DNA of 53,020 bases from a virus (IMGVR_UViG_3300043419_000168:1-53020); one strand, 5' to 3'; shown: positions 16,874-33,282, numbered from the stretch's first letter. Notes: generated by a model from the sequence alone, not told the origin. Numbers and translations are program-made.

Positions 16874-19800
16874 ATGATCGATTTCAATACAGAACCGTAT
16901 AATGACGATTACGACGAGAATCAGAAATTTTACCGTATTCTATTCCGTCCAAGTTTCGCTGTGCAAGCCCGAGAGCTTACTCAGATGCAAACTATTTTAC
17001 AGAAACAAATTTCCCGTCATGGTGACCACGTATTCAAACAAGGTGCAATGGTTATCCCAGGACAGATCTCTATCGATAATAAAGCACAGTATGTTAAGCT
17101 AAACCCATTATATGCTGGTGTTGCGGTAGAAACATTCTTATCCAACTTAGAAGGTAAGATCCTTGTTGGCAGTAGCGGTCTAAAGGCAGAAGTTATTAAA
17201 ACTCAAAGCCAAGAAACTACAGAACCAACAACAATTTACGTTCGTTATAAGAACTCTGGTACAAATACAACAACAAAAACATTTGCTCCTGATGAAGTTA
17301 TCACAACAGAAGATTCAGTATATTCTGTTCAAGTATCTCCATTAGAAACAACTCCGACTGGTGTCGGTTCAATTGTAACAATTCAACGTGGTGTTTACTA
17401 CGTTAACGGACACTTCGTTTTAGTTGATACTCATTCTTTAATTTTAGAAAAATATTCTGACACACCATCATATCGTGTTGGTTTGGCTGTTCAAGAAACA
17501 GTTATAACTCCAGAGGATGAAGATAGCTTATTAGACAATGCTCAAAACAGTTATAACTTTGCTGCTCCAGGTGCTCATCGTTATTTCATTGATTTAACAT
17601 TGGCTAAGTTACCTTTAACTTCAGTTGAAGATAAAGACTTTATTGAACTTCTTCGTGTTAACGAAGGTGTTAATCAGAAACAAGTTTCTAAGACAGAATA
17701 TGCTGAATTAGAAAAGACTTTAGCACGCAGAACTTACGACGAATCTGGTGATTACACTGTTCGTGAGTTTGCAATCGATGTTCGTGAACATCGTAATAAT
17801 GATCGTGGCGCATGGACTGGCACTACATCATTCCTATTGGGCGACGTAGTTACTAATGCTGGTAAAACATACGTAGCTAAAAATAATGGAACATCTGTTT
17901 CAATTGCACCGACACATACTTCTGGCACTGCATACGATGGTCCAGGTTCTACTGGTATTAACTGGGAATATAACGAGAACCCAGTTTATAATCGTGGTAT
18001 CTTCAGAACAGGCGATGTCAACAAATTAGCTATTGGTTTGGAGCCAGGAAAAGCATATGTTCGTGGTTACGAAATTGAAAAGATTTCTACAGAATATGTT
18101 GCTGTAAATAAAGCACGCGATTATGTTCAGGCTGATAATGCGTTCGTTACTGCAACAGTCGGTAACTTTATCTACGCAACTAACCTTAATAATCTACCTC
18201 CAATCAATACATTTGACACAGTAGATCTATACAATAGAGTTACTGGATCAGCTGGTCGTGGAACTGCTGTTGGTACTAAAATTGGTACTGCCCGTGTTCG
18301 TTTTATCGAATGGGATAACGGAACTATCGGTTCAGCTTCAGCAGTGTGGAAAGTTTCTCTATTTGATGTTAAATTAAACTCTGGTTACACTTTCGATCGC
18401 CATGTTAAATCTGTATTCTTTAATGGTGGTTCTGCAGCTACAAGTTTTACTGCAGACGTTAATCCAATAACAACTCAGTTAATTGGATCAGTAACTGCTG
18501 CGGGAACTACAGTAACTGGTACTGGAACTTCATTCCAAACAGATTTAATCGTTGGCGATTATATCTCTGTTGCTGGTGGATTATATCGTGTTACTGCTAT
18601 CGCTTCTCAAACATCATTAACGATTGATGCTTCTTTAACTACAACTGGTGCTACATATAGCTTAGTTGAAACTAGATTGATCGAGTCTGATAAAGATAGT
18701 TTAGTATTCTCATTGCCATACTATGCTATTCGTTCTTTAAGAAGTTCTCTTGGAACTAATGATACTTCTTATACAGTTTACGAAAGATTCACAGGAACAA
18801 CTTCTTCCTTATCTGGCGGTAACTGCACATTAACAGTATCAACATCATCTGGTTCTATGGCATCAGGTGCTGTTTCTGGTAACTACATTTTGATTGACAA
18901 TACTACTGGTGATGTTGTGTTACCATCTGCCATTGTTCCATCTGGTGCTTCTGTTACATTTACGATCCCAGGAGCTTATGCATCAAGACCATTCGTAGTT
19001 ATCGGTGCTGTTAATAAAACTGGTTCTACAAATACTGAAAAAACTAAAACTCTTAACAGTGCAACAGTAACATTTACTACTCAGGCTACTGCAACAGCAA
19101 CTACTTTGTCTCTAGGTAAGTCTGACGCGTGGAGAATTGTTTCTATTAAAATGAAGTCTGGAACATTCGCAAGTCCAGGTTCTACTTATGACATTGATAT
19201 TTCAGATCGTTATAGTTTCGATAATGGTCAACGTGCCACTTATTACGATCTAGGTAAAATTAACCTAAAAGATACATTCGTCCCACCATCAGCACCAATC
19301 GAAGTTGTGTTCGAATACTTCACACACTCTACTGGTGACTACTGCTCTGTTAACTCATACCCATCTGAAGTTTCTTACAATGATATCCCAGCTGAGTTGC
19401 GCGATTCATTAGACTTCCGTCCACGAATTGATGATGCAGGAACAACATTCACTGGATCTGGTTCTGCAGTATTAGTACCTAAGCGTGGTGCCGATGTTAG
19501 AACAGACTTCACTTACTACCTATCAAGAAAAGAAAAAGTTGCTGTTGATATCAATGGTAACTTCTTTAGTATTTCTGGAACATCTTCTTTAACTCCTGGA
19601 GAGCCAGAAGATCCAGCTACTGGCATGGTTCTTTACAAGTTAACACTTGAGCCATACACATTCGGCACTTCTTCAGAGAACGTAACTATTTCTAAAGTAG
19701 ACAATAAACGCTACACAATGCGTGATATCGGTAAGCTAGAAAAGCGTATCGATAACTTGGAATACTACACTTCATTATCATTGTTGGAGCAAGAAACTCA

Positions 19801-22800
19801 GTCATTGAAGATTTCTGATTCAACTGGTTTAGATCGTTTGAAGAATGGTTTCATTGTTGATAACTTCTCTGGCCATGGTGTTGGTAATGTATCATCACCA
19901 GACTATAAGTGTTCAGTTGATATGGAGAAAGGCGAACTACGTCCATTCTTCACAATGACCAACGTAAACTTAATCGAGAAGAACTCGAACGACACACAAA
20001 GAGAAGCCAGCAACTACGCTCAATATGGTGATGTTGTAACATTACCAATTCTTGAAGATGTTGTTTTAGTTAAACAAGAATTTGCTTCTCGTTTAGAAAA
20101 CATTAACCCATTCGCTATCTTCACTTTTATCGGTGACGTTAAGATGAACCCAGCTGCCGATGAGTGGTTCGAGGTTGATCGTCGCCCAGATATTGTGAAT
20201 AATATTGAAGGTAACTTCTCAACAATCGCTACACTTGCTGAAAAAGCTGGTGTTCTTGGAACTGTTTGGAACTCATGGCAGACTCAGTGGTCTGGAGTTC
20301 CTGTATCTCAAGGAGTTAGAGGTCTTTCTCGTAGCGAAATCGTTTCACGTTTCGGTAATGGTCCAGCTCGTCAGGTTACAGCTGAGTTCTTCGCAACTGA
20401 AATTGGTCAATCAAGAACTGGTGTTAGAAGTTCTGTTGTAGCTAAAGTTGATAAGCAAGTAGTTGCTGATCGTGTTTTATCTACTGCAGTTATTCCTTAC
20501 ATTCGTTCAAGAAATGTATTAGTTCAGGTTCGTGGTCTAAAACCACAAACTCGTTTCTATCCATACTTCGATAATATCGATGTTTCTTCTTACTGCACTC
20601 CAGCATCTAAGATTACTTACACTGGAACTCAAGCGTTCGACTTTGAAAGTAATGTTGGTGGTACTGCATCAGAAACTGCTCGTAGAATCGCTGGTGATTC
20701 ACAAGTATGTTTGAACAGAGGTGATGTTATCACTGGTGTTACTTCTGGAGCTACAGCGGTTGTTGTTGGAACAGAACTAGACCCAGATACTGGTGCTAAA
20801 GCGTTATTGGTCGTTAACATTATTGGAACATTCCAAACTAACGAACAGATTACTGGTTCTATCACTAACTCAACTGCGACAATCAACTCTGTGTCATTAG
20901 CAACAGTTGGTGGAACTTTAACATCAAATAAGAATGGTAACATTAACTTACTATTCAACATTCCTAACACTGATGCGGTTCGTTTCCGTACTGGTTCTCG
21001 TGAGTTCAAGTTAATCGACAACTCAGTTGCAACTGGTGATTACACTTCTCGTGGTCGCTCAAACTATAGAGCTGAGGGTATTATTGAAACTCGCCAGTCA
21101 TTGGTTAACGCAGTTCGTAACGCAGAAATTGCTCAAGAAGTTGTTCAAGATTCTCAAACTATCATTGAAACTTCTCAGCGTGTTATTTCTGATACTGGTT
21201 GGTATGACCCTCTTGCTCAAACATTCTTGGTTGAGAATAAGGGTGGCGCATTCTTGACAGCTGTTGACATTTTCTTCGCTTCTAAAGATTCACAAATTCC
21301 TGTGACTTTAGAGATTCGTGAAGTTGTTAATGGATATCCAGGTAAGCGTGTTCTACCATTCTCACGTGTAACTCTTAACCCAGAACAGATTAACTTGTCT
21401 ACAACTACAGTAGATCTAGATGGTGTTGCTACTCCTAAGTATGACACACCTACACAATTTAGATTCACTTCTCCAGTTTATGTTCAGGACGCTGGTGAAT
21501 ATTGTATCGTCTTGCAATCTGACTCTAACAAATACAAGTGCTGGATTTCTCAGGTAGGTGATGCTGTTCCAGGAACATCTAGAACTATTTCTGAGCAACC
21601 GTATGCAGGTTCTTTATTCAAGTCTCAGAATGCTTCTACTTGGACAACTGATCAAACACAAGACTTGAAGTTTACTATCCATCGTGCTAAGTTTGATACT
21701 TCAGCTGTTGGAACAGTTCAGTTCGTAAACGATGTTCTACCATATAAGTCTTTAGTGGCTGATCCATTCCAGACTACTACTGGTTCTACAATCGTTCGTG
21801 TATGGCATGATAACCATGGCTTGGTAGCTGGTTCTAAAGTTATTATCTCTGGCGCAACTGGAACTCTAAACGGAATTCCTTCTGCTCAGCTAAACGCAAC
21901 ACATACTGTTGCTAACGTAGATCTAGATTCTTATACGATAACAGTTACTACAGCTGCAACAGCAACTGGTTATGCTGGTGGTTCAACTATCCGTGCAACT
22001 GGTCAGGTTCAATATGATGCTGTTTATCCAATCGCTCAGGTTCAAAGTTTCTCTGAGACATCTGTAAACTACTCAGTTAAAACAACTTCTGGTGCGTCTG
22101 TTGATGGAACTCAAACTGCCTACATTCAGGATGTGAGTTTCGGTGATTGCTTGGCCAATGAAAATAATTACTTCTACAGCCCTCGTTTGGTTGCTTCTGA
22201 AGTGAACGAAAATAATTCTCTTGGTGGTAACAAGTCTGTTACATTCGCAGTTAACCTATCTTCAACTAATGACTCTTTGTCTCCAGTTTTAGATACACAA
22301 AGAATGTCGCTAGTTGCTATTTCTAATAGAATTAACTCTCCTACACACGCTAACGTGGACGTAACTCCAGTAGATTACACAACACTGTTTACTGGTGCGA
22401 CTGGAGCGTTTAGCTTCTCTGGTTCTACAATTACATCAACTAATACTACTGTAAGAAACTTAATTTCTACAATTGGTATCGGTCAATACGTTAAGATTGA
22501 GTCTGCAACAACTTCTGGTAATAACGGACAATTCTTAGTAACTGATTTGACTGATGATGGAACAACAGGAACTATAACTGTATCTGGTGTAACATTCACC
22601 AGCGAAGCAGCTGTTACTGGAACTACAGTATCAACTGTAAACTTGTTCACAGATGAAATTGCACCGATTGGTTCTTCGACTGCTTCTAAGTATGTAACAA
22701 ATGCAGTTAAATTGGCTCTTCCATCAACATTCGTGAAGATCCGTTTTGCAGCTAATGTTCCTTCTGGAGCAGACGTTGATGTTTATTATAAAACTTCTCT

Positions 22801-23020
22801 TGGTTCTACTGGAACACTGGATAAGACTAAATATACTTTAGCAACTCCAGTTGTCCCTGCCGTTAAGGTAGAGAATGGAAATGAAACATTCTACGATGTT
22901 GACTATTCTTTAACTAACCTAAACCCATTCGATACGATTCAGGTTAAGGTTGTTATGAAGTCTACAAATAGTTCTGCAATTCCTAGAATCAAAGATTTAC
23001 GAATTATTGCTTGTGCGTAA
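16874..23020 (+). CDS. Large virion structural protein, VrlC/DUF4815-like
   Basis: FNTEPYNDDY...FYRILFRPSFAVQARELTQMQ, APGAHR, LARRTYDESGDY, YTMRDIGKLEKRI, DPLAQTF, PRIKDLRIIA; late promoter motif ATAAATA at 16834. Confidence 0.85.
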   Translation: MIDFNTEPYNDDYDENQKFYRILFRPSFAVQARELTQMQTILQKQISRHGDHVFKQGAMVIPGQISIDNKAQYVKLNPLYAGVAVETFLSNLEGKILVGSSGLKAEVIKTQSQETTEPTTIYVRYKNSGTNTTTKTFAPDEVITTEDSVYSVQVSPLETTPTGVGSIVTIQRGVYYVNGHFVLVDTHSLILEKYSDTPSYRVGLAVQETVITPEDEDSLLDNAQNSYNFAAPGAHRYFIDLTLAKLPLTSVEDKDFIELLRVNEGVNQKQVSKTEYAELEKTLARRTYDESGDYTVREFAIDVREHRNNDRGAWTGTTSFLLGDVVTNAGKTYVAKNNGTSVSIAPTHTSGTAYDGPGSTGINWEYNENPVYNRGIFRTGDVNKLAIGLEPGKAYVRGYEIEKISTEYVAVNKARDYVQADNAFVTATVGNFIYATNLNNLPPINTFDTVDLYNRVTGSAGRGTAVGTKIGTARVRFIEWDNGTIGSASAVWKVSLFDVKLNSGYTFDRHVKSVFFNGGSAATSFTADVNPITTQLIGSVTAAGTTVTGTGTSFQTDLIVGDYISVAGGLYRVTAIASQTSLTIDASLTTTGATYSLVETRLIESDKDSLVFSLPYYAIRSLRSSLGTNDTSYTVYERFTGTTSSLSGGNCTLTVSTSSGSMASGAVSGNYILIDNTTGDVVLPSAIVPSGASVTFTIPGAYASRPFVVIGAVNKTGSTNTEKTKTLNSATVTFTTQATATATTLSLGKSDAWRIVSIKMKSGTFASPGSTYDIDISDRYSFDNGQRATYYDLGKINLKDTFVPPSAPIEVVFEYFTHSTGDYCSVNSYPSEVSYNDIPAELRDSLDFRPRIDDAGTTFTGSGSAVLVPKRGADVRTDFTYYLSRKEKVAVDINGNFFSISGTSSLTPGEPEDPATGMVLYKLTLEPYTFGTSSENVTISKVDNKRYTMRDIGKLEKRIDNLEYYTSLSLLEQETQSLKISDSTGLDRLKNGFIVDNFSGHGVGNVSSPDYKCSVDMEKGELRPFFTMTNVNLIEKNSNDTQREASNYAQYGDVVTLPILEDVVLVKQEFASRLENINPFAIFTFIGDVKMNPAADEWFEVDRRPDIVNNIEGNFSTIATLAEKAGVLGTVWNSWQTQWSGVPVSQGVRGLSRSEIVSRFGNGPARQVTAEFFATEIGQSRTGVRSSVVAKVDKQVVADRVLSTAVIPYIRSRNVLVQVRGLKPQTRFYPYFDNIDVSSYCTPASKITYTGTQAFDFESNVGGTASETARRIAGDSQVCLNRGDVITGVTSGATAVVVGTELDPDTGAKALLVVNIIGTFQTNEQITGSITNSTATINSVSLATVGGTLTSNKNGNINLLFNIPNTDAVRFRTGSREFKLIDNSVATGDYTSRGRSNYRAEGIIETRQSLVNAVRNAEIAQEVVQDSQTIIETSQRVISDTGWYDPLAQTFLVENKGGAFLTAVDIFFASKDSQIPVTLEIREVVNGYPGKRVLPFSRVTLNPEQINLSTTTVDLDGVATPKYDTPTQFRFTSPVYVQDAGEYCIVLQSDSNKYKCWISQVGDAVPGTSRTISEQPYAGSLFKSQNASTWTTDQTQDLKFTIHRAKFDTSAVGTVQFVNDVLPYKSLVADPFQTTTGSTIVRVWHDNHGLVAGSKVIISGATGTLNGIPSAQLNATHTVANVDLDSYTITVTTAATATGYAGGSTIRATGQVQYDAVYPIAQVQSFSETSVNYSVKTTSGASVDGTQTAYIQDVSFGDCLANENNYFYSPRLVASEVNENNSLGGNKSVTFAVNLSSTNDSLSPVLDTQRMSLVAISNRINSPTHANVDVTPVDYTTLFTGATGAFSFSGSTITSTNTTVRNLISTIGIGQYVKIESATTSGNNGQFLVTDLTDDGTTGTITVSGVTFTSEAAVTGTTVSTVNLFTDEIAPIGSSTASKYVTNAVKLALPSTFVKIRFAANVPSGADVDVYYKTSLGSTGTLDKTKYTLATPVVPAVKVENGNETFYDVDYSLTNLNPFDTIQVKVVMKSTNSSAIPRIKDLRIIACA

Positions 23021-23247
23021 TGGAAAATTTTCTTAAAGTTCAGGGTCATGATGGCTTGGTTAGAGATACCTCTTCCAATGCCATCATAAATACTAGTATG
23101 GTTGATTATGTTCAATATATGAACCAACGTAAGGCTGCAGAACAAAAAGAAAATATTATAAAGACTCAAGCAGAAGAAATAAATAATATTAAATCAGAGC
23201 TTTCTGACATTAAGCAGATGCTTACTGTGTTACTAAAAGATCGCTAA
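23020..23247 (+). CDS. Small coiled-coil protein following the VrlC-like gene
   Basis: KVQGHDGLVRDTSSNAIINT followed by a coiled coil; start set at the TAATG overlap (23020). Confidence 0.75.
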   Translation: MENFLKVQGHDGLVRDTSSNAIINTSMVDYVQYMNQRKAAEQKENIIKTQAEEINNIKSELSDIKQMLTVLLKDR

Positions 23248-23262
23248 GAATAAGGGAAAATA

Positions 23263-24435
23263 ATGGCGACACTCGTTCTCCGACAAGTCAAGGGGTCTCC
23301 TCTTACAAACGCTGAGGTTGATGCCAACTTCACGAATCTAAACAATGAATTATCAACTAAGCTAACAGCTACAGACTATAACGCTGCTGACATTCTCACA
23401 AAACTTAAAACAGTTGATGGGTCTGGTTCTGGTTTAGATTCAGACTTACTAGATGGTCTATCAGCATTATCAACACTTCCTGTACCGACAGATAAGAGCT
23501 CTATCGTAGCTCGTGATTCTTCTGGTAACGCAACCCTAAATGCATTGACTTTGGTTGGTGCTTTAGCTGGAACTTCTGGTACGTTTTCTGGAAATTTATC
23601 AGTTGGAAGTATCACTATCAATGGTGGTTCTATTCCAGTTTCTGTTGGTGGTACTGGTGCAACAAACGCATCGAACGCTAGAGCGAATCTTGGCTTGGCG
23701 ATCGGGTCTGATATTCAGGCTTATGATGATTCGTTGCAAGCTATTTCTGCTGTAACACTGACAGCAGACTCTATTCCATATTTTACAAGTTCTACTGCAG
23801 CTGCAGCAACTACGCTAACTGCCTTTGCCAGAACTCTATTGGATGACGCTAACGCATCAACTGCCAGATCTACTCTTGGTTTAGTTATCGGTACAGATGT
23901 TCAACCATTCGACGCTGACTTGTCTGGATTCTCTGGTTTATCTACCAATGGTATTATTGTTAGAGTTTCCAGCGGTAACATCGTTTCAAGAGAAATTACT
24001 GGTGTTATCGGCGACATCGATGTAGTAAATGGTGATGGTGTTGCTGGTTCTCCAGCTTTATCTGTTGGCGCAAATATTCCTCGTCTAGCTTCTAATAATA
24101 CATTTGCTGGAACTACAAATACATTTGTTAATGTGGTGGCTACCTCTTACCAAACTACTTCTGATGCAAGATTAAAAGAGAATGTTCAAACGCTAAATAA
24201 TGCTGTAGAAGTTGTAAATAGACTTCGTGGTGTTTCATATACAAGAAACGGTAAACCAGAAATTGGTCTTATTGCACAAGAAGTTGAGGCTGTTATTCCA
24301 GAGGTTGTTGGTGAATCTGGTGAATATAAGACAGTTTCTTATGCTAACATTGTTGGTTTATTGATCGAAGCTATTAAAGAACAACAAAAAACTATTAAAG
24401 AATTAACTACTCGCGTAGAGAACTTGGAGAAATAA
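23263..24435 (+). CDS. Tail fibre with C-terminal intramolecular chaperone (peptidase S74)
   Basis: KGSPLTNAEVDANF N-terminus; GGTGA...ARANLGL fibre repeats; SDARLKENV...IGLIAQEVE...LLIEAIKE. Confidence 0.88.
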   Translation: MATLVLRQVKGSPLTNAEVDANFTNLNNELSTKLTATDYNAADILTKLKTVDGSGSGLDSDLLDGLSALSTLPVPTDKSSIVARDSSGNATLNALTLVGALAGTSGTFSGNLSVGSITINGGSIPVSVGGTGATNASNARANLGLAIGSDIQAYDDSLQAISAVTLTADSIPYFTSSTAAAATTLTAFARTLLDDANASTARSTLGLVIGTDVQPFDADLSGFSGLSTNGIIVRVSSGNIVSREITGVIGDIDVVNGDGVAGSPALSVGANIPRLASNNTFAGTTNTFVNVVATSYQTTSDARLKENVQTLNNAVEVVNRLRGVSYTRNGKPEIGLIAQEVEAVIPEVVGESGEYKTVSYANIVGLLIEAIKEQQKTIKELTTRVENLEK

Positions 24436-24436
24436 T

Positions 24437-24805
24437 ATGCCTGTAAGCGCAACTGGATTTAAAATTTCGTCTGGAGCAGACCTTAATGGTGTGTTCTGGG
24501 GATGGCAGGGTGATACTGGAAATCGTGGTGTAAACGACAGTAATGGTAACTGCGGATGGAACTGTGCATGTAACGCATGTAACTCAGCATGTAACTGTAA
24601 CTGTGGTAACTGCGACGCTGCTGACTTAGCATTAAACGTACACGTTACTGATTGGCGTTTAAACGTATTCCGCAATACTGCATACAATGATGGTCTCCGT
24701 CACGACTCACAAGAACAATCAATGGGACATTTCAAGTATTTACGTGTTAATTGCAACTGTAACTGTGCATGTAACTGTAACTGTGCATGTAACTGTAACT
24801 GCTAA
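24437..24805 (+). CDS. Cys/Asn-rich small protein (17 Cys); candidate radical-SAM substrate or fibre-tip protein
   Basis: NCGWNCACNACNSACNCNCGNC (8 Cys) and terminal NCNCNCACNCNCACNCNC (9 Cys); SD GGAG; starts 1 bp after the fibre stop. Confidence 0.8.
   Translation: MPVSATGFKISSGADLNGVFWGWQGDTGNRGVNDSNGNCGWNCACNACNSACNCNCGNCDAADLALNVHVTDWRLNVFRNTAYNDGLRHDSQEQSMGHFKYLRVNCNCNCACNCNCACNCNC
24755..24802 (+). repeat. Tandem 18-bp repeat AACTGTAACTGTGCATGT (~2.7 copies) encoding NCNCAC
   Basis: Read directly from the sequence. Confidence 0.9.
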
Positions 24806-24817
24806 GGAATAAATTAA

Positions 24818-25840
24818 ATGTATAAGTTAATTAAAACAAAAATTACTGGCTTTGACGATATTGAAGATAGCCCTATTGGTGTTAACTCTAATTATAGAGC
24901 TACTATGGGATATGATTCTACAAACGAAACCATTAATGTTAAAGTAGAAAAAATTATTCGCCCTGAGTTAACTAGAGACGAAGAAGTTGAATTTTCTTAT
25001 CAGATTGTTGATGAAAAGTCTTTCACTAAAGCAGACTTTGTTCAAACTAAAGAAAATATGGCATGGCAGGTAGACTTTGATGTTCAGAGTGAGAAAATTG
25101 TAGCTCCTTTAGACGTTTATGCGTACACATCAACTATCGCTACTGGTTCATTATTCCATCGTGTAATGTGGAGAAAAATTAAAGAGCGTTATTCTAGCGA
25201 TACTTTACTTCCACTATTCACTGTAGATTCTTTCTATAAACAAGCTGAAGGGTTTTCCCTTTCAACGCTACAGTTCCACGTGGCTGATAATCCAGGACAA
25301 ATTTCTGACACTGTTATTACAAATTCTGACGTAGAAGAAATGACACAAGCAGAAAAGATTTCTTATTTGTTTGATAATATCAATACTGCAGTTTTTTATG
25401 AAGTGTTTGATGCAGATGATAATTTGTTATCAACCATTGTACCAGTCCCATGTCCTTACCCACAAGTTGCTGTAGCTGCTCGTGAAGGTGATGCAGTAAG
25501 ATCTAGAGGTGGTAATCAGTATAGAACTACATTACCTAAGGCTAGCTCATATAAAGTTGTAGTGTTTTTCCTTAGACTTAATCACAACACAACAATTCCA
25601 TGTCAGTTTGATGTTTCATGTGTTAATGGAGTTGCTTCTAAATCACGTGTTATTTCTGGACTAAAACCAGGTGAACCTACTTCTTATAGAGGAGTTAACC
25701 CAAGAGGAGAATTTACTAGATTTTCTGGAAGCGAAGTCATTAAAGTTAATGTGGACTTAGAATCTGGAGATTTCTTTAAATTGAAATTATCTTGTGGAGA
25801 TTTCTACTCATATTCAGAACTTTGGGCTGATATAGAATAA
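24818..25840 (+). CDS. Hypothetical protein in the radical SAM island
   Basis: 340-aa ORF with SD AAGGA; no motif recognised. Confidence 0.7.
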   Translation: MYKLIKTKITGFDDIEDSPIGVNSNYRATMGYDSTNETINVKVEKIIRPELTRDEEVEFSYQIVDEKSFTKADFVQTKENMAWQVDFDVQSEKIVAPLDVYAYTSTIATGSLFHRVMWRKIKERYSSDTLLPLFTVDSFYKQAEGFSLSTLQFHVADNPGQISDTVITNSDVEEMTQAEKISYLFDNINTAVFYEVFDADDNLLSTIVPVPCPYPQVAVAAREGDAVRSRGGNQYRTTLPKASSYKVVVFFLRLNHNTTIPCQFDVSCVNGVASKSRVISGLKPGEPTSYRGVNPRGEFTRFSGSEVIKVNVDLESGDFFKLKLSCGDFYSYSELWADIE

Positions 25841-25857
25841 TACTATTTACAGAGACT

Positions 25858-25886
25858 AAATACCCTGTATAGAACAGGGTATTTTT
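25858..25886 (+). terminator. Intrinsic terminator-like hairpin overlapping a late promoter motif
   Basis: AAATACCCTGT-ATAGA-ACAGGGTATTT then TT; CTAAATA at 25856-25862. Confidence 0.7.
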
Positions 25887-25907
25887 CATTTATTATAAAG
25901 GAATAAC

Positions 25908-27377
25908 ATGGCTGCATATAAAATGATCTTACAGGGATCAAATGACGTGAAACAGGTTTTAGTATATGACCCGATGACATCAAAAATGTATTGGGAAGAA
26001 ACTGGCGAAAGACCATCGCTAAACTATATCGCTAATGGTTTGGAGTATCAAATTGATGCTAAAGTCTGGACTCCTGCAAATGTAACTAATCCACATAATC
26101 CAGATCTTCACGGAAAAAAATCAAGAAAACCTACAACTCTTAAGATAACTATGGGTCTTAAGTGTAATTATGCATGTTCATATTGTAACCAAGCTCATCA
26201 ACCACATGACCCAGTTGGTGGTCCAGAAGATGCTGAAGAATTGATTGCTAAGATGAAATCTAATTTCTCATTTGGCACTTATGATAAATTTAGACTAGAA
26301 TTTTGGGGTGGTGAACCTTTAGTTTATTGGAAAACATTAAAACCTCTAGCTGAAAAGGTTAGAAAAGTTTATCCCAACGCACAATTTATGATGGTCACTA
26401 ATGGATCTTTATTAGATCGCGATAAAGTCGACTGGTTCAACCGTATGGGATTTTCAATCGGTATGTCTCATGATGGACCTTTACATGCACAAAATCGTGG
26501 ACCTGATCCACTAGATGAGCCTAAGGCTAAAGATGCTGTTGTTTATGCTCTTAAAACTATGGGTCAGACTAGATTTACCTTTAACTGCGTATTGACAAGA
26601 GAAAACGTGTCAATCTCTGCAGTTCGTGATTTCATTTTAGACAAATTAAATCGTAAAGATTTTGGGTATGAATATACTGAAGTTTCTCAGATGGAACTTC
26701 AAGTGACGACAGAAGAACTGATGTTACCTTATGACGACTCTGGTATGGCACATTCTTTGCATACTACTGATGAAAAGAAAGAAATTTTACATTCTCTATT
26801 CTGGGAAACTATTCAATCTAAGAATCAGTTTAGTTGGACGATTAATCAAAAGATTCAATCTTTCTTTGAGTCTTTAGTGTATCAAAGACCTGCTGAAGTT
26901 ATTGGTCAAAAATGTGGTATGGATAAAGAAGATAATCTTGCCATCGATATGAAGGGTAATGTAACTACATGTCAGAACACTTCTTCTTTAACTAAACACA
27001 ATCTTGGTAATATCGAAGATATGGATAATGTCCGATTGACGAATTCATATCACTGGTCAACTAGAGCGGAATGTCCGTCATGCCCAGTTGTTCAATTGTG
27101 TCAGGGTGCGTGTTTGTTCTTAGAGGATCAGTATTGGACTCAGGCATGTGAAAACTTATTCTATTATAACTTGGGTATGTTAGCTAGTTCTCTTTTCATC
27201 CTTACAGATGGTTTAATTTTAACCGAAATTCATGGCGATAAAATTAGATTCGAAGGAGTTACTTCTATTCCAGTAATTGATATTGACTTCGTCAAGTCTA
27301 ATGGAAAGCAGAAATCTTGGAAAGTTAAAAAACCAATTAACATTCCTATCGTTACAGTACCAGCAGTACCACAATAA
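25908..27377 (+). CDS. Radical SAM enzyme with SPASM domain (peptide/protein maturase-like)
   Basis: CNYACSYC (CxxxCxxC), FWGGEPL, VTNGSLL, SHDG; SPASM cysteines C-x18-C and CPSCPVVQLCQGAC-x11-C. Confidence 0.93.
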   Translation: MAAYKMILQGSNDVKQVLVYDPMTSKMYWEETGERPSLNYIANGLEYQIDAKVWTPANVTNPHNPDLHGKKSRKPTTLKITMGLKCNYACSYCNQAHQPHDPVGGPEDAEELIAKMKSNFSFGTYDKFRLEFWGGEPLVYWKTLKPLAEKVRKVYPNAQFMMVTNGSLLDRDKVDWFNRMGFSIGMSHDGPLHAQNRGPDPLDEPKAKDAVVYALKTMGQTRFTFNCVLTRENVSISAVRDFILDKLNRKDFGYEYTEVSQMELQVTTEELMLPYDDSGMAHSLHTTDEKKEILHSLFWETIQSKNQFSWTINQKIQSFFESLVYQRPAEVIGQKCGMDKEDNLAIDMKGNVTTCQNTSSLTKHNLGNIEDMDNVRLTNSYHWSTRAECPSCPVVQLCQGACLFLEDQYWTQACENLFYYNLGMLASSLFILTDGLILTEIHGDKIRFEGVTSIPVIDIDFVKSNGKQKSWKVKKPINIPIVTVPAVPQ

Positions 27378-27378
27378 T

Positions 27379-27696
27379 ATGGCATTTCTTGATTGTTATA
27401 TTTGGGAAGTTAATAAGTTTCCCAGGTATGGTAAAAACCTTGATAGAAACACGATCTCTAACATATTTTATGTTAAATCTGACGAGAACGGATTTCAAAA
27501 TAATAATGTTAACATACAGATCCCCGATTTTTTAATTCAGGGAACTGAGGCTGAAAAACTCTTTGTGTATAAATATAAAGAGAAAATAATTAAACATTGT
27601 CTTCCAATAATCGTTTCTGTGAGTAATAGTTATGGTGAACTTGAATGGAAGCTAGACCTACGTGTTGCAGAACACGTTAAATATCTAAGAAACTAG
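27379..27696 (+). CDS. Hypothetical protein
   Basis: Likely start MAFLDCYIWEV at 27379, 1 bp after the rSAM stop; the track's 27277 start overlaps the rSAM gene. Confidence 0.55.
   Translation: MAFLDCYIWEVNKFPRYGKNLDRNTISNIFYVKSDENGFQNNNVNIQIPDFLIQGTEAEKLFVYKYKEKIIKHCLPIIVSVSNSYGELEWKLDLRVAEHVKYLRN
27568..27575 (+). promoter_or_regulatory. T4-type late promoter upstream of dctP
   Basis: Exact TATAAATA ~130 bp before the dctP start. Confidence 0.55.
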
Positions 27697-27706
27697 GAGA
27701 TTAAAA

Positions 27707-28654
27707 ATGCAACAAAAACACGTAAAATGGGTTATTGCCCATGAGCCGATTGGTTTGTTCTTAAAGGTAGCTGACGCATTCGCTAAAGAAGTGAACGAAC
27801 AAACTGGTGGAAAATTCAATATTGAAGTTCTATCATTATCTGACTATGCAGAAAAGTATAACGATGGTAAGAAAATTACTAAAGACGACTTGATGGCATT
27901 GGTTGATACTGGTGCAATCGAAATGAGTCACATCTATACAACATGGCTAGCTGACTATAACAAAGATCTACATGCTCTAGATCTACCATTCTTGTTCCGT
28001 GATCACGATCATGCTGACGCAGTTCTAGAAGGCGAAATCGGTACTGAATTGTTGGCTGGTGTTTCTAAACAGTCAAATATCAAGGCTATGTCTTTCACTT
28101 ATTCTGGTGGTTATCGCGTAGTTCCAGCTAACTTCCGTGCTGATACTGTAGAAGCATGGAAAGGTAAAGCTGTTCGTACCTCACGTTCACCAGTTGCTGT
28201 TGAAACATTCAAGCTACTTGGCGCAGAACCAAAAGAGCACATCGCTCTAGAAGAAATGAACGCAGCTGCTAAAGCTGGTCAGATCGAAGCTGGTGAATCT
28301 ACTTATGTTCGTGTATTCCCACTACAACAGAATGAAGCATTTGCTGTAGTTAATGATACTGCACATAGCTTGTTCTTAACTTCTATTATCGTTAACCAAG
28401 ATTTCTTCAAGCAGTTTGATCAAGAAACTCAAGAAATTATGGCTACTGCTGCATTCAATGCTGCTCGTAAAGAGCGTCGTGAATCAGTTGCTGATATTCC
28501 AAACATCCTAGCTGAATGTGCAGCTAAAGGTGTTGAAGTTGTTAAGATGTCTGCTACTGAAGAGCAGAAGTTTAAGGAAGTTACTTCTTCTGTGTATGAG
28601 AAGTTCGCTGACTACTTCACTCCAGGATTGGTTCAGAAGATTCAATTACATTAA
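27707..28654 (+). CDS. dctP: TRAP transporter substrate-binding protein (DctP family), no signal peptide
   Basis: FAKEVNEQTGGKFNIEV, LDLPFLFRD, GYR, GKAVRT (conserved Arg position), TAHSLF; strong SD AGGAG. Confidence 0.85.
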   Translation: MQQKHVKWVIAHEPIGLFLKVADAFAKEVNEQTGGKFNIEVLSLSDYAEKYNDGKKITKDDLMALVDTGAIEMSHIYTTWLADYNKDLHALDLPFLFRDHDHADAVLEGEIGTELLAGVSKQSNIKAMSFTYSGGYRVVPANFRADTVEAWKGKAVRTSRSPVAVETFKLLGAEPKEHIALEEMNAAAKAGQIEAGESTYVRVFPLQQNEAFAVVNDTAHSLFLTSIIVNQDFFKQFDQETQEIMATAAFNAARKERRESVADIPNILAECAAKGVEVVKMSATEEQKFKEVTSSVYEKFADYFTPGLVQKIQLH

Positions 28655-28672
28655 TTTGTGAGCGATAAATAT

Positions 28673-28698
28673 TGGGGAGCTTCGGCTCCCCATTTTTT
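28673..28698 (+). terminator. Intrinsic terminator with cUUCGg tetraloop
   Basis: TGGGGAGC-TTCG-GCTCCCCA-TTTTTT after dctP; ATAAATA at 28665-28671 immediately upstream. Confidence 0.88.
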
Positions 28699-28712
28699 CA
28701 TTTGAGGATATT

Positions 28713-29789
28713 ATGAGTAACATATTATTTTACAATGTAGGTTTCACCAAACAAGTGATTGACAAGAACCCAGAATCAATCTCTGAGTTTCTTAATCCAG
28801 ATTATAAACAACTATTTGATTTTTATGATAAACATAAAATGAATATGAATGTTGTCTATGATAGAACTGGAAACACACCTCATTATTTAAAAATTAAACC
28901 AGATCTACTGAAAATTCCTACAGTAGACTCTACATTCAATAAATCGTTTAGACAATGTGTAGAAGAAAGAACTAAACATCTTCTTTCGCTGGGTAAAAGA
29001 ATTAATGTCGTTTGGAGTGGTGGTATTGATAGCACTCTTGTATTGTTTGCATTTTTACATTACTGCAACGACCCATCACAAATAACAGTGTATGGAACTT
29101 ATAGTTCTGTACTAGAATCTGGAAGTTTGTTTGATAAAGTAATATTACCTTCTGGTGTTCACCATAAAATAAAGGTATCATCAAGAAGAGATTTTGATGA
29201 CTGTCCAGAAGATGAAATATTCGTAACTGGGTTTTTCGGTAATCAGTTGTTCGGTCCGACTGATAATTTTACTACAAATAAAACAGTAAAAACTGACATA
29301 TCATTTTTCCATCATCAGTTTAATGGAACAGATCCACTTGATGATTACACCAAGTACATAGATCCAGAGCTACATGAGTTTTTGACGCCATGTATTAAAG
29401 CAAGTCCGAAGCCAATAGAAACTTTGAGGGATCTAAGATGGTGGTTTATTTTTAATTTGGATTGGTATACTGCAGAATTTGCAACAAGAATTAACACTAA
29501 GCAACAAGACAACCAATATCACTTCTTTAATACTGACGATTTTCAGCGTTATGTTATAACAACTAAAGAACCATTCACGAAAGAAGTTGGTAATCCATTA
29601 ACCCATCGTTGGGTTATGCGCGAGTTAATTGAAGAGTGGAGTGGAGATAGCCATTATGCTTGGAACAAACCAAAAGGGGTTTCCAATCTAGGAAACCCCA
29701 ACCCTACATGGTTATTTTTATTAGACGACTATTCAGTCTATTATTTAAGAAACAACAGTCTTTTTAGTAGTTCGCGAAACTTACCATAA
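28713..29789 (+). CDS. Asparagine-synthetase-like / PP-loop ATP pyrophosphatase family protein
   Basis: INVVWSGGIDST PP-loop; FVTGFFGNQLFG corresponds to the AsnB-type GxGxDELFG motif; no glutaminase domain evident. Confidence 0.7.
   Translation: MSNILFYNVGFTKQVIDKNPESISEFLNPDYKQLFDFYDKHKMNMNVVYDRTGNTPHYLKIKPDLLKIPTVDSTFNKSFRQCVEERTKHLLSLGKRINVVWSGGIDSTLVLFAFLHYCNDPSQITVYGTYSSVLESGSLFDKVILPSGVHHKIKVSSRRDFDDCPEDEIFVTGFFGNQLFGPTDNFTTNKTVKTDISFFHHQFNGTDPLDDYTKYIDPELHEFLTPCIKASPKPIETLRDLRWWFIFNLDWYTAEFATRINTKQQDNQYHFFNTDDFQRYVITTKEPFTKEVGNPLTHRWVMRELIEEWSGDSHYAWNKPKGVSNLGNPNPTWLFLLDDYSVYYLRNNSLFSSSRNLP
29671..29699 (-). terminator. Minus-strand intrinsic terminator embedded in the PP-loop gene
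   Basis: Minus strand reads GGGGTTTCC-TAGATT-GGAAACCCC-TTTTG, ~65 bp past the stop of ORF 29764..30402. Confidence 0.6.
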
Positions 29790-30402
29790 CATTGATAGTT
29801 ACGTAAGTTTGATCGTCTAAGTTAGTTTCTGTATATCTTTGGACATATCCAGGAGTTACAAAAATCTCTCCGATATTTCCTTTAATACCGTAACCAGTTC
29901 CAATAAGGTTTTGGCTTACGATATTTTTATCAACTGTTTGAACACCACCACGAGTGTCAGCGAAGTATGTCACTGGACTATTTTGACTAGCATTAACAAC
30001 AAATGTGAACACTAATGGAGTGAACTCATAACAGTGTAATGGGATATGCTCGAACTTTTGTTGGAACAATGTATTTGCACCAATAATCATTGGAGGTCTT
30101 TGGTTTTCTCCAGAAAATAGTGGAAGATTATCACAAATTTCATAAATCACTTCCTTTAGTCTATTTACAGCTGGATGGTCTAGTTTCATAACATCAACAT
30201 ACGCATTTGCTTCTGTAGCGTTAGATGAATCTGACAAATCCATTAATGTTTGCGCAATTTTGTTCCAATCAGAGAATGTATAGCTTCTGAATAATGTTGG
30301 AAACATTACTTTTTCATGAGTTTGCGTAACTGGGGTGTAATCAAAAGCAGGAAGTTCAGATTCTTGAACAATTCCGTTTTGTGGTGCTTGGATGTTTTCC
30401 AT
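29764..30402 (-). CDS. 2OG-Fe(II) oxygenase-like (TIGR02466-type) protein with apparently degenerate metal ligands
   Basis: MFPTLF, IPLHCY, TYFADTRG, GEIFVTPGYVQRYTETN...VTINV follow the family layout; SD GGAG and late promoter motifs upstream. Confidence 0.55.
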   Translation of the reverse strand: MENIQAPQNGIVQESELPAFDYTPVTQTHEKVMFPTLFRSYTFSDWNKIAQTLMDLSDSSNATEANAYVDVMKLDHPAVNRLKEVIYEICDNLPLFSGENQRPPMIIGANTLFQQKFEHIPLHCYEFTPLVFTFVVNASQNSPVTYFADTRGGVQTVDKNIVSQNLIGTGYGIKGNIGEIFVTPGYVQRYTETNLDDQTYVTINVMVSFANY

Positions 30403-30444: not shown

Positions 30445-30486
30445 TATTTATACAACAATATTTAGCGTTCCAAAATAAGATAAATA
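30445..30486. promoter_or_regulatory. Divergent late promoter motifs
   Basis: Minus strand TATAAATA (30445-30452) and CTAAATA (30459-30465); plus strand ATAAATA (30480-30486). Confidence 0.65.
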
Positions 30487-31089: not shown

Positions 31090-33282
31090 ATGGCATCTAT
31101 AATTCGCATTAAGCGTTCATCAGTTAGCGGAAATCCAAGTACACTTGGTGCTGGTGAGTTAGCCTACTCAAACTTAACAGATAATGGTTCGAATGGTGGT
31201 GATCGCTTATACATCGGTATGGGTAGTGAAACTGCTGGTAATGCTGCGAACCATATCGTTATCGGTGGTAAATATTTCACCGATATGTTGGATCACACTA
31301 AAGGTGTATTAACAGCAAACTCAGCTTTACTTGTTGACGCCAATAGTAAATTAGATAATCTTAAAGTTGATAACTTAGACTTAAATGGTAATGAGTTAAG
31401 TTCAACAAACGCCAATGGTAATATTTTAATTACACCAAATGGCACTGGTAAAACTATCGTTACTAATTTGTATACAGATAGTAACACATCATTAGCTGAA
31501 TACATTCAAGACGTAACTGGCGGTCAGTTAGTTGATAGCTCAGAAATTGCTCCTGCTTACAATGACGTAACAGGAACTACTACTTTAGCACTTAAGACTA
31601 CTGGTGTTACTGCTGGTTCTTATGGTTCTACTACAAAGATCCCTACATTTACTGTAGACACTAAGGGTCGTTTATCTGCAGCTGGTGAAGTTGACGTAGC
31701 TACAACTCTATCACTAATTGGTGATACTGGTTCTGATGGTATTTCATTACTATCAGAAACACTAACAATCGTTGGTGGTGAAGGTATTGATACTGCAGTT
31801 ACAGCTAATACTCTAACAATATCAGCTGAATTAGCATCAACATCAAATAAAGGTGTTGCATCTTTTGAAACTGCAGACTTTAATGTGACTTCTGGTGCAG
31901 TTGAACTAAAAGATACAGTAGTTAAATCATTTACAACTGATTCTGGTTCTCTAACTCCTACTTCACATGGTGTTTCTATTCTCGGCGGTGAAGGTATTGA
32001 TGTAACCCATTCTGGAAATGTTATTACAGTTGCAGGTGAAGATGCATCTACCACTAATAAAGGTGTTGCTTCGTTCAACACAGATAACTTCACTGTAACA
32101 AGTGGCGCAGTTTCTACTAAAACGATCACTCTTGGTAATACAACATTAACTAATGGTTCCACTACTACAGGTATAACTGGTTTAAGTGAAGTAGAAGTTG
32201 ACAACATCAGAGTTGATGGTAATACAATTAGTTCTACAAATACAGATGGTAATATCGTCATTTCTCCAAATGGTAATGGTAGTGTTGATGTTTCTTCTTC
32301 TAGAATAATTAACTTATCAGAACCAGTAGCTGATTCTGACGCAGCTACCAAGTACTACGTTGATGCTGCTCGTTCTGGTCTTGATATTAAGAACTCTGTT
32401 AAAGCTGCTACAACAGCAAACATAACATTAAGCAACACCCAAACCATTGATGGTGTTGCTCTTTCAGTTGGCGATCGTGTTCTTGTTAAAGACCAAACGA
32501 ACTCTGCGCAGAATGGTATCTACGTTGTTGCTTCTGGATCTTGGACTCGTTCTACTGATGCAGATGCTCCAGCTGAATTAAATCCAGGAACTTTCGTATT
32601 CGTTGAACAAGGTTCTGTAAATAGTGATACTGGTTTTGTTGTAGTTTCTGATGGTGCATTAACTATCGGTACTGATCCAATCCAGTGGACTCTATTCTCA
32701 ACATCTGGTACTTTAATCGCTGGTGCTGGTTTATCTAAGAACGGATATACTTTAGAAGTTAACGTAGCTGGTTCTGGTGGTATTGAAATTGTTTCTGACA
32801 ATTTACAATTAAAATCTACAATCGCTGGTGCTGGTTTAATCTATGATTCTGGTGTATTAGATATCGTTGGTACTGCCAACCGTATCACTGTTAGTGCCAA
32901 TGGTATTGACATCGCATCAACTTATGTTGGTCAAACTTCTATTACAACTCTTGGTACTATCACTACTGGTACTTGGCAGGCTGATGTAATTCAAGATGCT
33001 TATATTGCTAATGATTTAACAATCGTTGGTGGTACTATTAATAATACACCTATCGGTGCTACTACTCGTTCAAGTGGTGCCTTCACTACTTTAAGTGCGA
33101 ACAGTACTCTTGGTGTAACTGGTGCTGCTACTTTAGGTTCTACATTATCAGTAACTGGTGCAGCAACTCTAAGTTCTACACTATCTGTTTCTGGTAACGC
33201 TACTTTTGCTGCTAATTTGACTGGAGCTGGTGCTGATACATCTAACTTAGATGGTTTCAACATCGATGGTGGCACTTATTAA
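31090..33282 (+). CDS. Tail fibre-like protein
   Basis: IIRIKRS...GELAY N-terminus; DAATKYYVD, GDRVLVKDQ...NGIY; internal duplications; ends in DGGTY. Confidence 0.78.
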   Translation: MASIIRIKRSSVSGNPSTLGAGELAYSNLTDNGSNGGDRLYIGMGSETAGNAANHIVIGGKYFTDMLDHTKGVLTANSALLVDANSKLDNLKVDNLDLNGNELSSTNANGNILITPNGTGKTIVTNLYTDSNTSLAEYIQDVTGGQLVDSSEIAPAYNDVTGTTTLALKTTGVTAGSYGSTTKIPTFTVDTKGRLSAAGEVDVATTLSLIGDTGSDGISLLSETLTIVGGEGIDTAVTANTLTISAELASTSNKGVASFETADFNVTSGAVELKDTVVKSFTTDSGSLTPTSHGVSILGGEGIDVTHSGNVITVAGEDASTTNKGVASFNTDNFTVTSGAVSTKTITLGNTTLTNGSTTTGITGLSEVEVDNIRVDGNTISSTNTDGNIVISPNGNGSVDVSSSRIINLSEPVADSDAATKYYVDAARSGLDIKNSVKAATTANITLSNTQTIDGVALSVGDRVLVKDQTNSAQNGIYVVASGSWTRSTDADAPAELNPGTFVFVEQGSVNSDTGFVVVSDGALTIGTDPIQWTLFSTSGTLIAGAGLSKNGYTLEVNVAGSGGIEIVSDNLQLKSTIAGAGLIYDSGVLDIVGTANRITVSANGIDIASTYVGQTSITTLGTITTGTWQADVIQDAYIANDLTIVGGTINNTPIGATTRSSGAFTTLSANSTLGVTGAATLGSTLSVTGAATLSSTLSVSGNATFAANLTGAGADTSNLDGFNIDGGTY

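Follow-up and report, generated by a model that had tools for sequence, protein, structure and literature searches.

Positions 23,263 to 30,402 of IMGVR_UViG_3300043419_000168, a viral DNA of 53,020 nucleotides (nt) that was analysed over its whole length (the window), carry a run of eight open reading frames (ORFs) that on balance seem to form a phage cassette maturing the tip of a tail fibre by means of a radical S-adenosylmethionine (SAM) enzyme. Sequence comparison indicates that the genetic coupling between an intact radical SAM enzyme of the SPASM type (RS-SPASM) and a terminal fibre tail of Xaa-Cys units is specific, ancient and widespread, and the radical SAM enzyme (rSAM) probably acts on the Asn-Cys (NC) tail of a virion fibre. 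For the reaction itself, formation of thioether crosslinks is the leading, still tentative, candidate. The window encodes a T4-like myophage structural module, with a gp5-like hub, a gp6-like wedge, a sheath, a portal and a major head protein, and all eight ORFs of the run, first reported in a preliminary description of this DNA, were confirmed at their coordinates. The elements on which the argument turns are as follows.

23263..24435, + strand: P0001, fibre shaft of 390 amino acids (aa) with a C-terminal Peptidase_S74 domain (intramolecular chaperone), from PF13884 and tail-fibre PHROGs matches
24437..24805, + strand: P0002, 122 aa with an Asn-Cys repeat and 17 Cys in all, putative substrate and module for the fibre tip
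24548..24613, + strand: first Cys block of P0002, residues 38-59, NCGWNCACNACNSACNCNCGNC
24749..24802, + strand: (Xaa-Cys)9 tail of P0002, residues 105-122, with Cys as the last residue before the stop
24818..25840, + strand: P0003, 340 aa, probable distant member of the c3 family of accessory proteins, from hhalign
25908..27377, + strand: P0004, 489-aa radical SAM/SPASM enzyme, from CX3CX2C, seven SPASM Cys, TIGR04085 and phrog_1802

P0004 retains the CX3CX2C motif for the SAM-binding 4Fe-4S cluster (C86, C90, C93) and a complete seven-Cys SPASM motif for two auxiliary clusters (C-x13-G-x4-C ... CX2CX5CX3C ... C; C336, C355, C389, C392, C398, C402, C414), and these Cys are invariant in 16 homologues. 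It scored above the cut-off with PF04055 (37.5 bits vs 29.5) and with the NCBIfam SPASM domain TIGR04085 (36.3 vs 27), below it with the Pfam SPASM model alone (13.6 vs 21.5), and matched phrog_1802 at E 1.7e-63, a group that PHROGs labels merely 'radical SAM protein'. The SAM motif, the seven SPASM Cys and TIGR04085 together uphold its first assignment as a radical SAM/SPASM enzyme. Its best curated NCBIfam matches, all maturases of Cys-containing peptides or proteins, were PapB (1.3e-20), the anaerobic sulfatase-maturating enzyme anSME (TIGR03942, 1.3e-17) and QhpD (7e-16); the PapB, DynA, nif11-type, anSME, CcpM and QhpD maturase models rank within a few bits of one another, all far under their cut-offs. 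In the PDB, the closest solved structures by sequence are 8vpo (4.8e-17), CteB (5wgg, 1.2e-11) and anSME (4.5e-11). The 8vpo and CteB matches span just the SAM domain (profile positions 66-228), and the anSME alignment covers the enzyme as a whole (positions 80-388 of the profile to residues 15-331 of the chain). YydG, which we take to be an epimerase, likewise matches at 1.8e-7. In nine loci (L014, L016, L022, L023, L040, L044, L050, L061, L072), the rSAM gene has immediately 5' of it one more ORF, about 335-340 aa long, that groups by sequence with the rSAM family and may be a paralogue or an overlapping-frame artefact.

Searching with P0004 by tblastn returned genes 36-38% identical in Ralstonia phage RSP15, a member of the Ackermannviridae, and in Achromobacter phages JWF and 2-1; the JWF locus has a siphovirus-type tail gene order. 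At both annotated loci, JWF and RSP15, the rSAM gene lies inside the tail-fibre module. The pairing thus recurs in cultured phages that differ in morphotype: the JWF fibre gp028 carries NCNCDCNCNCSC with a Hint domain immediately after it and lies next to the rSAM gene gp030, and the RSP15 side-fibre protein has the C-terminus NCQCGN. A profile made from 16 P0004 homologues was used to scan IMG/VR (575 relatives, 78 loci kept) and one genome per prokaryotic species from GTDB (151 relatives, 80 loci kept, mostly Alpha- and Betaproteobacteria by record titles). Stop-to-stop ORFs of at least 40 aa were counted when they held runs of at least three Xaa-Cys units that came to 8 residues or more in total, and upstream counts were limited to loci with at least 3 kb upstream. 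Of 57 IMG/VR loci, 56 had an (Xaa-Cys)n ORF upstream, on the same strand as the rSAM gene, and so did 53 of the 61 genome loci, as opposed to 2/52 and 2/60 downstream. Opposite-strand matches occurred in 7/57 viral and 4/61 genome loci, and those listed for the viral loci overlap carrier genes. The matches comprise 46 distinct viral and 51 distinct genome tails, and loci inside one clade are not independent. A separate count at other thresholds gave 57/60.

The reverse search led to the same association. From a DNA pattern for NCNCNCNC alone, 117 new loci were fetched; the pattern lay in frame within an ORF in 89 of them, and 52 of these 89 had an rSAM gene within the fetched DNA, compared with none of the 28 loci with the pattern out of frame. 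The preliminary description had proposed co-occurrence as its check and had named an rSAM family usually lacking a Cys-rich neighbour as what would speak against it; given the forward and reverse counts, this is clearly not the case. The NCNCNCNC pattern also occurs in giant-virus GVMAG contigs (L086, L088, L091, L098 and others), where it never reads as in-frame Asn-Cys in an ORF of at least 40 aa and has no rSAM gene nearby.

In other phages the partner ORF is a full-length tail fibre. Carriers range from about 120 to 730 aa, most being fibres of 200-730 aa, and in most other phages the tail is formed by the last 10-30 residues of the fibre itself. Scanned carriers combined a T7 tail-fibre N-terminal domain with collagen repeats (Phage_T7_tail 5e-20, Collagen 2e-31), or collagen with CBM_5_12, or bore a Hint domain; several had no Pfam family. 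Nearly always the repeat stands at the end of the protein: of 152 distinct tails, 66 have Cys as their final residue, 67 continue for another 1-12 residues and 19 have a long extension, mostly with a Hint-like start (CFPAGT...), a few of these extensions looking like spurious ORFs. In JWF gp028, the Pfam Hint match begins at residue 308, the last Cys of the repeat; from general Hint chemistry, self-cleavage would leave the Xaa-Cys repeat terminal. Across 200 distinct carriers, the Xaa positions are 72% Asn, 15% Ala and 7% Asp, with a median of 6 and a maximum of 15 Xaa-Cys units per tail. The product had been pictured at first as a peptide or protein resembling a ribosomally made, post-translationally modified peptide (RiPP), most plausibly part of the virion. 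The idea of a virion component is upheld; as for the RiPP side, the carriers are proteins of 120-730 aa, and the putative substrate is their terminal tail, not an excised leader-core peptide. Pfam, PHROGs and NCBIfam scans of the eight ORFs returned no exporter and no protease other than S74.

Shorter or unusual carriers were also seen. ORFs of 67-82 aa ending in HIFYDDYSTACNCNCNCNC plus about five residues occur in the IMG/VR loci L089, L139, L155, L181 and L097, and L089 and L139 hold a more distant rSAM (E 1e-40 to 1e-43 vs the profile); here the system may exist in a genuine small-peptide form. Cys-rich ORFs of 134 aa (CQSVRCQYCQTQCTNCNCNCNCSNCDCGDDGG) adjoin a still more distant rSAM (E about 1e-24) in L151, L178, L194 and L110, also from IMG/VR, and may be another branch of the same theme. 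Two carriers (L002, 5679-7127; L040, 4014-5120) gave weak matches to Shufflon_N, a PilV-type constant region (E 5e-7 and 2.5e-6). In myophage loci L316, L321, L329, L332 and L346, the NC-tailed fibres are strikingly rich in His just before the tail, as in HLDTNHHFDPHHHHNNCTNCNCNC, which hints at metal binding.

The evidence that best places the repeat protein of the window in the fibre comes from homology and gene order. P0001 matched PF13884 over residues 300-349 (E 1.3e-15, 57.9 bits vs a cut-off of 22) together with tail-fibre PHROGs, in line with its description as an S74 fibre. P0002, whose 122 aa and 17 Cys also agree with the preliminary description, ends in VNCNCNCACNCNCACNCNC before the stop, the terminal tail being NCNCNCACNCNCACNCNC; its first Cys block resembles the NCNCGxFNC motif found N-terminal to the tails in other clades. 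Ten distinct relatives retain P0002 at 59-94% identity, and all tail Cys are invariant in 10 aligned sequences. A DNA microsatellite artefact was rejected, the repeat codons varying while the protein is conserved. A tblastn search of phages with P0002 gave no match, probably with the repeats hidden by the low-complexity filter. Related aquatic myophages share the gene order VrlC-like protein, ORF of about 80 aa, fibre, c3, rSAM, DctP and PP-loop gene, and their fibres, of 370-440 aa, end in a short tail such as NCNCNC. Residues 2-308 of P0001 are 40-51% identical to the first 300 or so residues of these NC-tailed fibres (E 1e-54 to 1e-92), and P0002 aligns weakly with their C-terminal 90 or so residues (E 0.002, 25-29% over about 108 aa); the P0002 ORF begins two bases past the stop codon of P0001. 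Because P0001 and P0002 align with successive parts of the relatives' fibres, the shaft in the clade of the window appears to have gained an S74 chaperone end while the NC-bearing tip became a separate ORF. These alignments suggest that P0002 is a fibre component.

Between carrier and enzyme lies the third conserved gene. P0003 had been described as an unknown of 340 aa, and indeed no family in Pfam, PHROGs or NCBIfam matched it; the protein atlas gave no usable feature match, with template-modelling (TM) scores below 0.4 for its structure matches. By hhalign it aligned with c3 (probability 87.6%, E 3.5e-6, 210 columns), a family of about 300 aa that all-against-all clustering of neighbours placed between carrier and rSAM. 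The model of a c3 protein (mean predicted local distance difference test score, pLDDT, 85) has a C-terminal domain related to immunoglobulin (Ig)-like domains (VIA-align Z 11.4); Foldseek and VIA-align found no known match for its N-terminal domain, and in BFVD the full-length structural relatives are uncharacterised phage proteins alone. Complex prediction for P0003 with P0002 gave no answer (score 0.00), which speaks neither for nor against binding. Pooling loci from the four retrieval routes overstates the frequencies of PP-loop gene, DctP and tail, and the prevalence of cassette members was hence counted in rSAM-retrieved, de-duplicated loci with adequate flanks alone (29 viral, 40 genome). 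There, c3 or c14 was present in 27/29 viral and 28/40 genome loci. Gene content thus points to a conserved core of an NC-tailed fibre, an Ig-ended protein of about 300 aa and the rSAM.

The remaining genes of the run are the following.

27379..27696, + strand: small conserved ORF, 105 aa, cluster c34, in 23/80 PP-loop-retrieved loci
27707..28654, + strand: P0006, DctP-family solute-binding protein, from PF03480 and NF037995
28713..29789, + strand: P0007, stand-alone synthetase of apparent AsnB class, 358 aa, no glutaminase domain, from the SGGIDS PP-loop and a model
29764..30402, - strand: P0008, divergent PF13759 (2OG-FeII_Oxy_5)-like protein, from phrog_81 (E 1.2e-6) and hhalign

The small ORF had been reported before; it is present, and its conserved form starts at the ATG at 27379, not at 27277. 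P0006 was confirmed as a DctP protein by PF03480 (E 3.8e-42, 145 bits vs a cut-off of 23.4) and by NF037995 (105.7 vs 50), with TIGR00787 below its cut-off (111.2 vs 175). Its N-terminus, MQQKHVKWVIAHEP, shows no hydrophobic signal peptide on reading the sequence. P0007 proved to be the PP-loop ATPase first described, with SGGIDS at residues 102-107. Its model (pLDDT 84.8) aligned by VIA-align with beta-lactam synthetase 1mc1 (Z 14.4, 193 residues, 3.1 A) and with AsnB/ASNS (Z 13.5-14.1; 13.5 for 1ct9); Z ranged from 12.3 to 14.4 across beta-lactam synthetase, AsnB/ASNS and carbapenam synthetase and did not exceed 11.1 for other PP-loop enzymes. The matches begin at about residue 142-190 of enzymes of about 500 aa, consistent with a protein without the N-terminal Ntn (N-terminal nucleophile) glutaminase domain, and TIGR01536 gave 15.4 bits vs a cut-off of 267.

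DctP and the PP-loop enzyme, presented in the preliminary description as parts of the system, turned out to be rare in it: the PP-loop gene was present in 4/29 viral and 1/40 genome loci, and DctP in 4/29 and 0/40. Retrieval seeded with the PP-loop gene gave 80 IMG/VR loci, of which 62 have DctP adjoining it and 54 an rSAM. Since pairs occur without rSAM, the DctP/PP-loop pair looks like an independent module that is frequently added to the cassette, chiefly in T4-like phages from aquatic habitats. Where the locus has a PP-loop gene, 32 of 33 distinct carriers have Cys as the very last residue of the tail, as opposed to 34 of 119 where it has none. Because tails in pair-bearing loci nearly always end in Cys, the DctP/AsnB-like pair could act on the free carboxylate of the tail C-terminus, a speculative and rather doubtful proposal. 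Amidation of Asp in the tails by the AsnB-like enzyme was considered and rejected, Asp being rarer with a PP-loop gene (2.1% vs 9.4%). In the close relatives L012 and L056, which have a c9 gene in place of DctP and the PP-loop gene, the tails end in Lys; like c3, c9 has no Pfam family. L012 (3365-4872) carries two tandem fatty-acid-desaturase genes (PF00487, E 1e-14 to 1e-15) between NC gene and rSAM, and L056 (4078-5582) two similar ORFs of the same cluster.

PF13759-like genes were present in 18/29 viral and 15/40 genome loci. The oxygenase-like gene announced earlier is PF13759-like, and it is encoded on the minus strand, where it converges on the PP-loop gene and overlaps it. P0008 alone had no Pfam match at E 0.1 or better; its family aligned by hhalign with PF13759-matching neighbours (probability 96.2%, E 2e-9). 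It keeps H119, H123 and D149 of the family pattern PHxH ... D ... H, the presumed metal ligands.

Promoter-like and terminator-like elements in and around the run are these.

23179..23185, + strand: ATAAATA late-promoter-like core, 84 nt 5' of the fibre gene
25858..25884, + strand: terminator-like hairpin with a T run after it, separating the P0003 and rSAM genes
27568..27575, + strand: TATAAATA, inside the small ORF, 139 nt 5' of dctP, with the ATAAATA core at 27569
28665..28671, + strand: ATAAATA core 5' of the PP-loop gene
28673..28692, + strand: terminator-like hairpin, between dctP and the PP-loop gene
30445..30452, - strand: TATAAATA, 43 nt 5' of the P0008 start

T4-type late promoters had been claimed for the fibre, rSAM, dctP, PP-loop and oxygenase-like genes. 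Promoter-like sites do lie 27-139 nt 5' of the starts of the fibre, dctP, PP-loop and oxygenase-like genes, but the rSAM gene has no late-promoter motif 5' of it and a terminator-like hairpin there instead. Nor are the motifs enriched in the window, where the exact TATAAATA occurs twice (27568 +, 30445 -) vs 5.3 expected and the ATAAATA core 14 times vs 19.3 expected.

The flanks of the cassette are conserved as well. Upstream lie a 2048-aa protein (phrog_358, E 0; 16874-23020) and, between it and the fibre gene, a conserved ORF of about 78 aa (23011-23247); the same pair, a protein of the 2048-aa type and an ORF of about 80 aa, stands 5' of the NC-tailed fibre in related myophages. The position of the phrog_358 protein corresponds to the VrlC slot, placed just before the variable 'host recognition cluster' of pelagimyophages in passages of PMC7029224. 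On the 3' side, a 730-aa fibre-like protein (31090-33282) clusters with the NC-tail carriers (cluster c1) and itself has no Xaa-Cys tail, and a c15-c23-c1-c24 gene block is conserved in the whole clade. At least half of the sampled words of the region were present in two freshwater metagenome runs from one sample, possibly the source of this DNA, with no RNA run among the sequencing runs matched to these words. A DNA search of a phage collection with the whole 7.1-kb region gave no match.

Taken together, the data lead us to the following model. By comparison, the candidate substrate is the C-terminal (Asn/Ala/Asp-Cys)n tail of a fibre, in the window carried by P0002 as a separate tip module after an S74-type shaft, and P0004 is the dedicated partner enzyme of the Xaa-Cys tail, whose Cys it would modify before virion release. 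The Cys sulfur might be joined to a carbon of a neighbouring residue, giving thioethers as in ranthipeptide, QhpD and sactipeptide chemistry, either inside a single chain or from one to another of the fibre's three chains. The product would be a covalently locked tip, formed in a reducing cytoplasm where disulfides cannot form. P0003, with the Ig-like end of its c3 family, is a conserved accessory that may serve as an adaptor or associate with the fibre, and PF13759-like and other oxygenase-like genes would supply optional tailoring enzymes. In aquatic T4-like phages, the leaderless DctP-type protein and the AsnB-class synthetase might adenylate the terminal carboxylate, leading to an amide or a ring. 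Thioethers are favoured because alternate residues are Cys, those in between are mostly Asn and Asp, and a covalent lock made in the cytoplasm would be useful for a trimer. NxxcB makes a Cys-Asn linkage, and the tail make-up (N 72%, D 7%) fits the acceptor types of beta-thioethers. PapB thioether chemistry uses Asp and Glu acceptors according to PMC12373016. In its widest form the model is less secure: it is conceivable that in many tailed phages, prophages and possibly tailocins the rSAM builds a poly-thioether ladder on the fibre tip, perhaps across its three chains, which oxygenases and an AsnB-like ligase decorate.

Several observations weigh against this model. Both the modification of the tail and its chemistry are inferred. 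P0004 appears to belong to no characterised family, since all NCBIfam equivalog scores are far under the cut-offs (PapB NF047865 gave 73.9 bits vs 340), and Pfam detected no RiPP recognition element (RRE) or PqqD-like domain in P0003 or P0004. The repeat ORF went undetected in 8/61 genome loci and 1/57 viral loci, and RSP15 has just two Xaa-Cys units. We know of no ranthipeptide acceptor role for Ala, which fills 15% of the Xaa positions. As for the accessory genes, loci with the rSAM immediately after the NC ORF lack c3 (L105, L107, L111), the DctP/PP-loop pair occurs without an rSAM in flanks of up to 8 kb per side (L305, L308-L312, L331), and the association between terminal Cys and PP-loop gene is confounded by lineage. 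In the P0008 family, an invariant Arg (Arg189) aligns with the distal His of PF13759 (H160 of alignment A7), and because it replaces an invariant His of that family, P0008 may not be a working Fe/2-oxoglutarate (2OG) enzyme.

Two alternatives retain the cassette and change what the enzyme does. With the same enzyme-substrate pair, the chemistry could be formylglycine formation, as by anSME, or an epimerisation or other change of alternate residues, giving a reactive or unusually folded tip. The full-length anSME alignment (E 4.5e-11) and the TIGR03942 match (1.3e-17) favour the first and the YydG match (1.8e-7) the second, the strictly alternating sequence fits a reaction at alternate positions, and the oxygenase-like neighbours point to oxidative tailoring. 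We nevertheless regard this reading as unlikely: the anSME score is far under its cut-off (63.9 bits vs 349.45), the P0002 tail, on reading its sequence, holds no C/S-x-P/A-x-R sulfatase motif, and the PapB, DynA and nif11-type maturases score equal to or better than anSME. Less likely still, and improbable in our view, is that the Xaa-Cys tail is a metal- or Fe-S-binding needle free of covalent change, the rSAM loading a cofactor or having another target. CxC runs are classic metal-binding motifs, the tip of T4 gp37 with its His-x-His iron sites offers an analogue, alternating residues in a trimeric fibre would put all Cys on one face, and the His-rich stretch before the tail of some myophage carriers is as expected for such a needle. 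Metal binding alone, however, leaves unexplained both the dedicated intact rSAM/SPASM gene of the 56/57 and 53/61 loci and the terminal or Hint-exposed position of the tail, and we know of no rSAM/SPASM enzyme that is a simple metal loader.

A product unrelated to the virion, either a released RiPP (bacteriocin or signal peptide) or metabolic genes gathered in the fibre region by chance, seems very improbable. It would accommodate the short carriers (71-134 aa) beside more distant rSAM genes (L089, L139, L151, L178, L194) and the mere 122 aa of P0002, and hypervariable fibre regions of aquatic myophages do gather unrelated genes, as passages of PMC7029224 describe. Yet most carriers are 200-730-aa fibres with T7-fibre, collagen or Hint domains, P0002 occupies the place of the C-terminus of its relatives' fibres, and the eight ORFs include no peptidase family but S74 and no transporter family but DctP.

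Returning to the proposed fibre tip crosslinked by P0004, its likeness to known systems extends to the class of enzyme and the general scheme in which an RS-SPASM enzyme acts on a Cys-rich substrate, which are already known; the type of substrate and the virion context are not. Like P0004, the ranthipeptide maturases and QhpD are RS-SPASM enzymes with a Cys-rich ribosomal substrate; they link the sulfur of Cys to a carbon in the side chain of Asp, Glu or Asn. What QhpD crosslinks is no excised peptide but a protein subunit, QhpC, of quinohemoprotein amine dehydrogenase. Unlike the PapB and QhpD systems, the proposed substrate here is an alternating Xaa-Cys tail on a phage fibre, with no CX3D-type motifs, in a virion structural module with no leader peptide, protease or exporter. 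anSME resembles P0004 in being an RS-SPASM enzyme that modifies Cys in a full-size folded protein and aligns with it at full length, and JWF gp030 is annotated as such an enzyme; here, by contrast, there is no sulfatase and no CxPxR motif, and the substrate Cys are many and in tandem. The maturases of sactipeptides, SCIFF peptides and cyclopropylglycine (CteB 5wgg, 8vpo) are the nearest solved structures by sequence, and some act on repeated short motifs; unlike with them, the matches are limited to the SAM domain, Pfam finds no RRE here and the substrate class is another. The 8vpo structure is cited in PMC10878394, which deals with cyclopropyl synthases.

Among fibres, T4 gp37 and gp12 have metal-binding tips. 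In them and in S74 fibres the trimeric C-terminus is specially processed or stabilised, as is proposed here; as to self-processing ends, P0001 carries S74 and some NC tails precede a self-cleaving Hint. The difference lies in a separate redox enzyme that would be dedicated to the fibre end; we know of none for gp37, gp12 or S74 fibres, and few phage receptor-binding proteins are known to us to be modified by enzymes after translation. Operons with 2OG dioxygenases, for which enzymatic modification of neighbouring tail-collar and collagen-like proteins was predicted (Iyer et al. 2010, PMC2938197), resemble the cassette in that it, too, often includes oxygenase-like genes; the passages of that paper on them mention no rSAM partner and no Asn-Cys tail. 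An rSAM maturase is mentioned in a cyanophage, beside different genes, in passages of PMC12801897, and radical-SAM cassettes of the pelagimyophage host-recognition cluster are given in those of PMC7029224, there with no interpretation. Searches of full-text papers outside subscription journals, whose supplements may hold relevant gene tables, found no account of Asn-Cys-tailed fibres or of a fibre-modifying rSAM, and among the NCBIfam models (June 2026 release) none passes its threshold as a family match to P0002, P0003 or P0004.

Should the tails be modified, many environmental phages and some cultured ones would depend, for host recognition or fibre stability, on a radical enzyme that current annotation calls just 'radical SAM protein' or 'sulfatase maturase'. 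The model, if true, would explain how covalent crosslinks can be built into a virus fibre inside a reducing cytoplasm, and would define a class of covalently crosslinked virion structure. It would also point to RS-SPASM enzymes that modify proteins and take a very simple repeat as substrate, a large family as yet untapped. To RiPP enzymology it would offer a minimal repetitive substrate, and to phage engineering a portable tail-plus-enzyme module.

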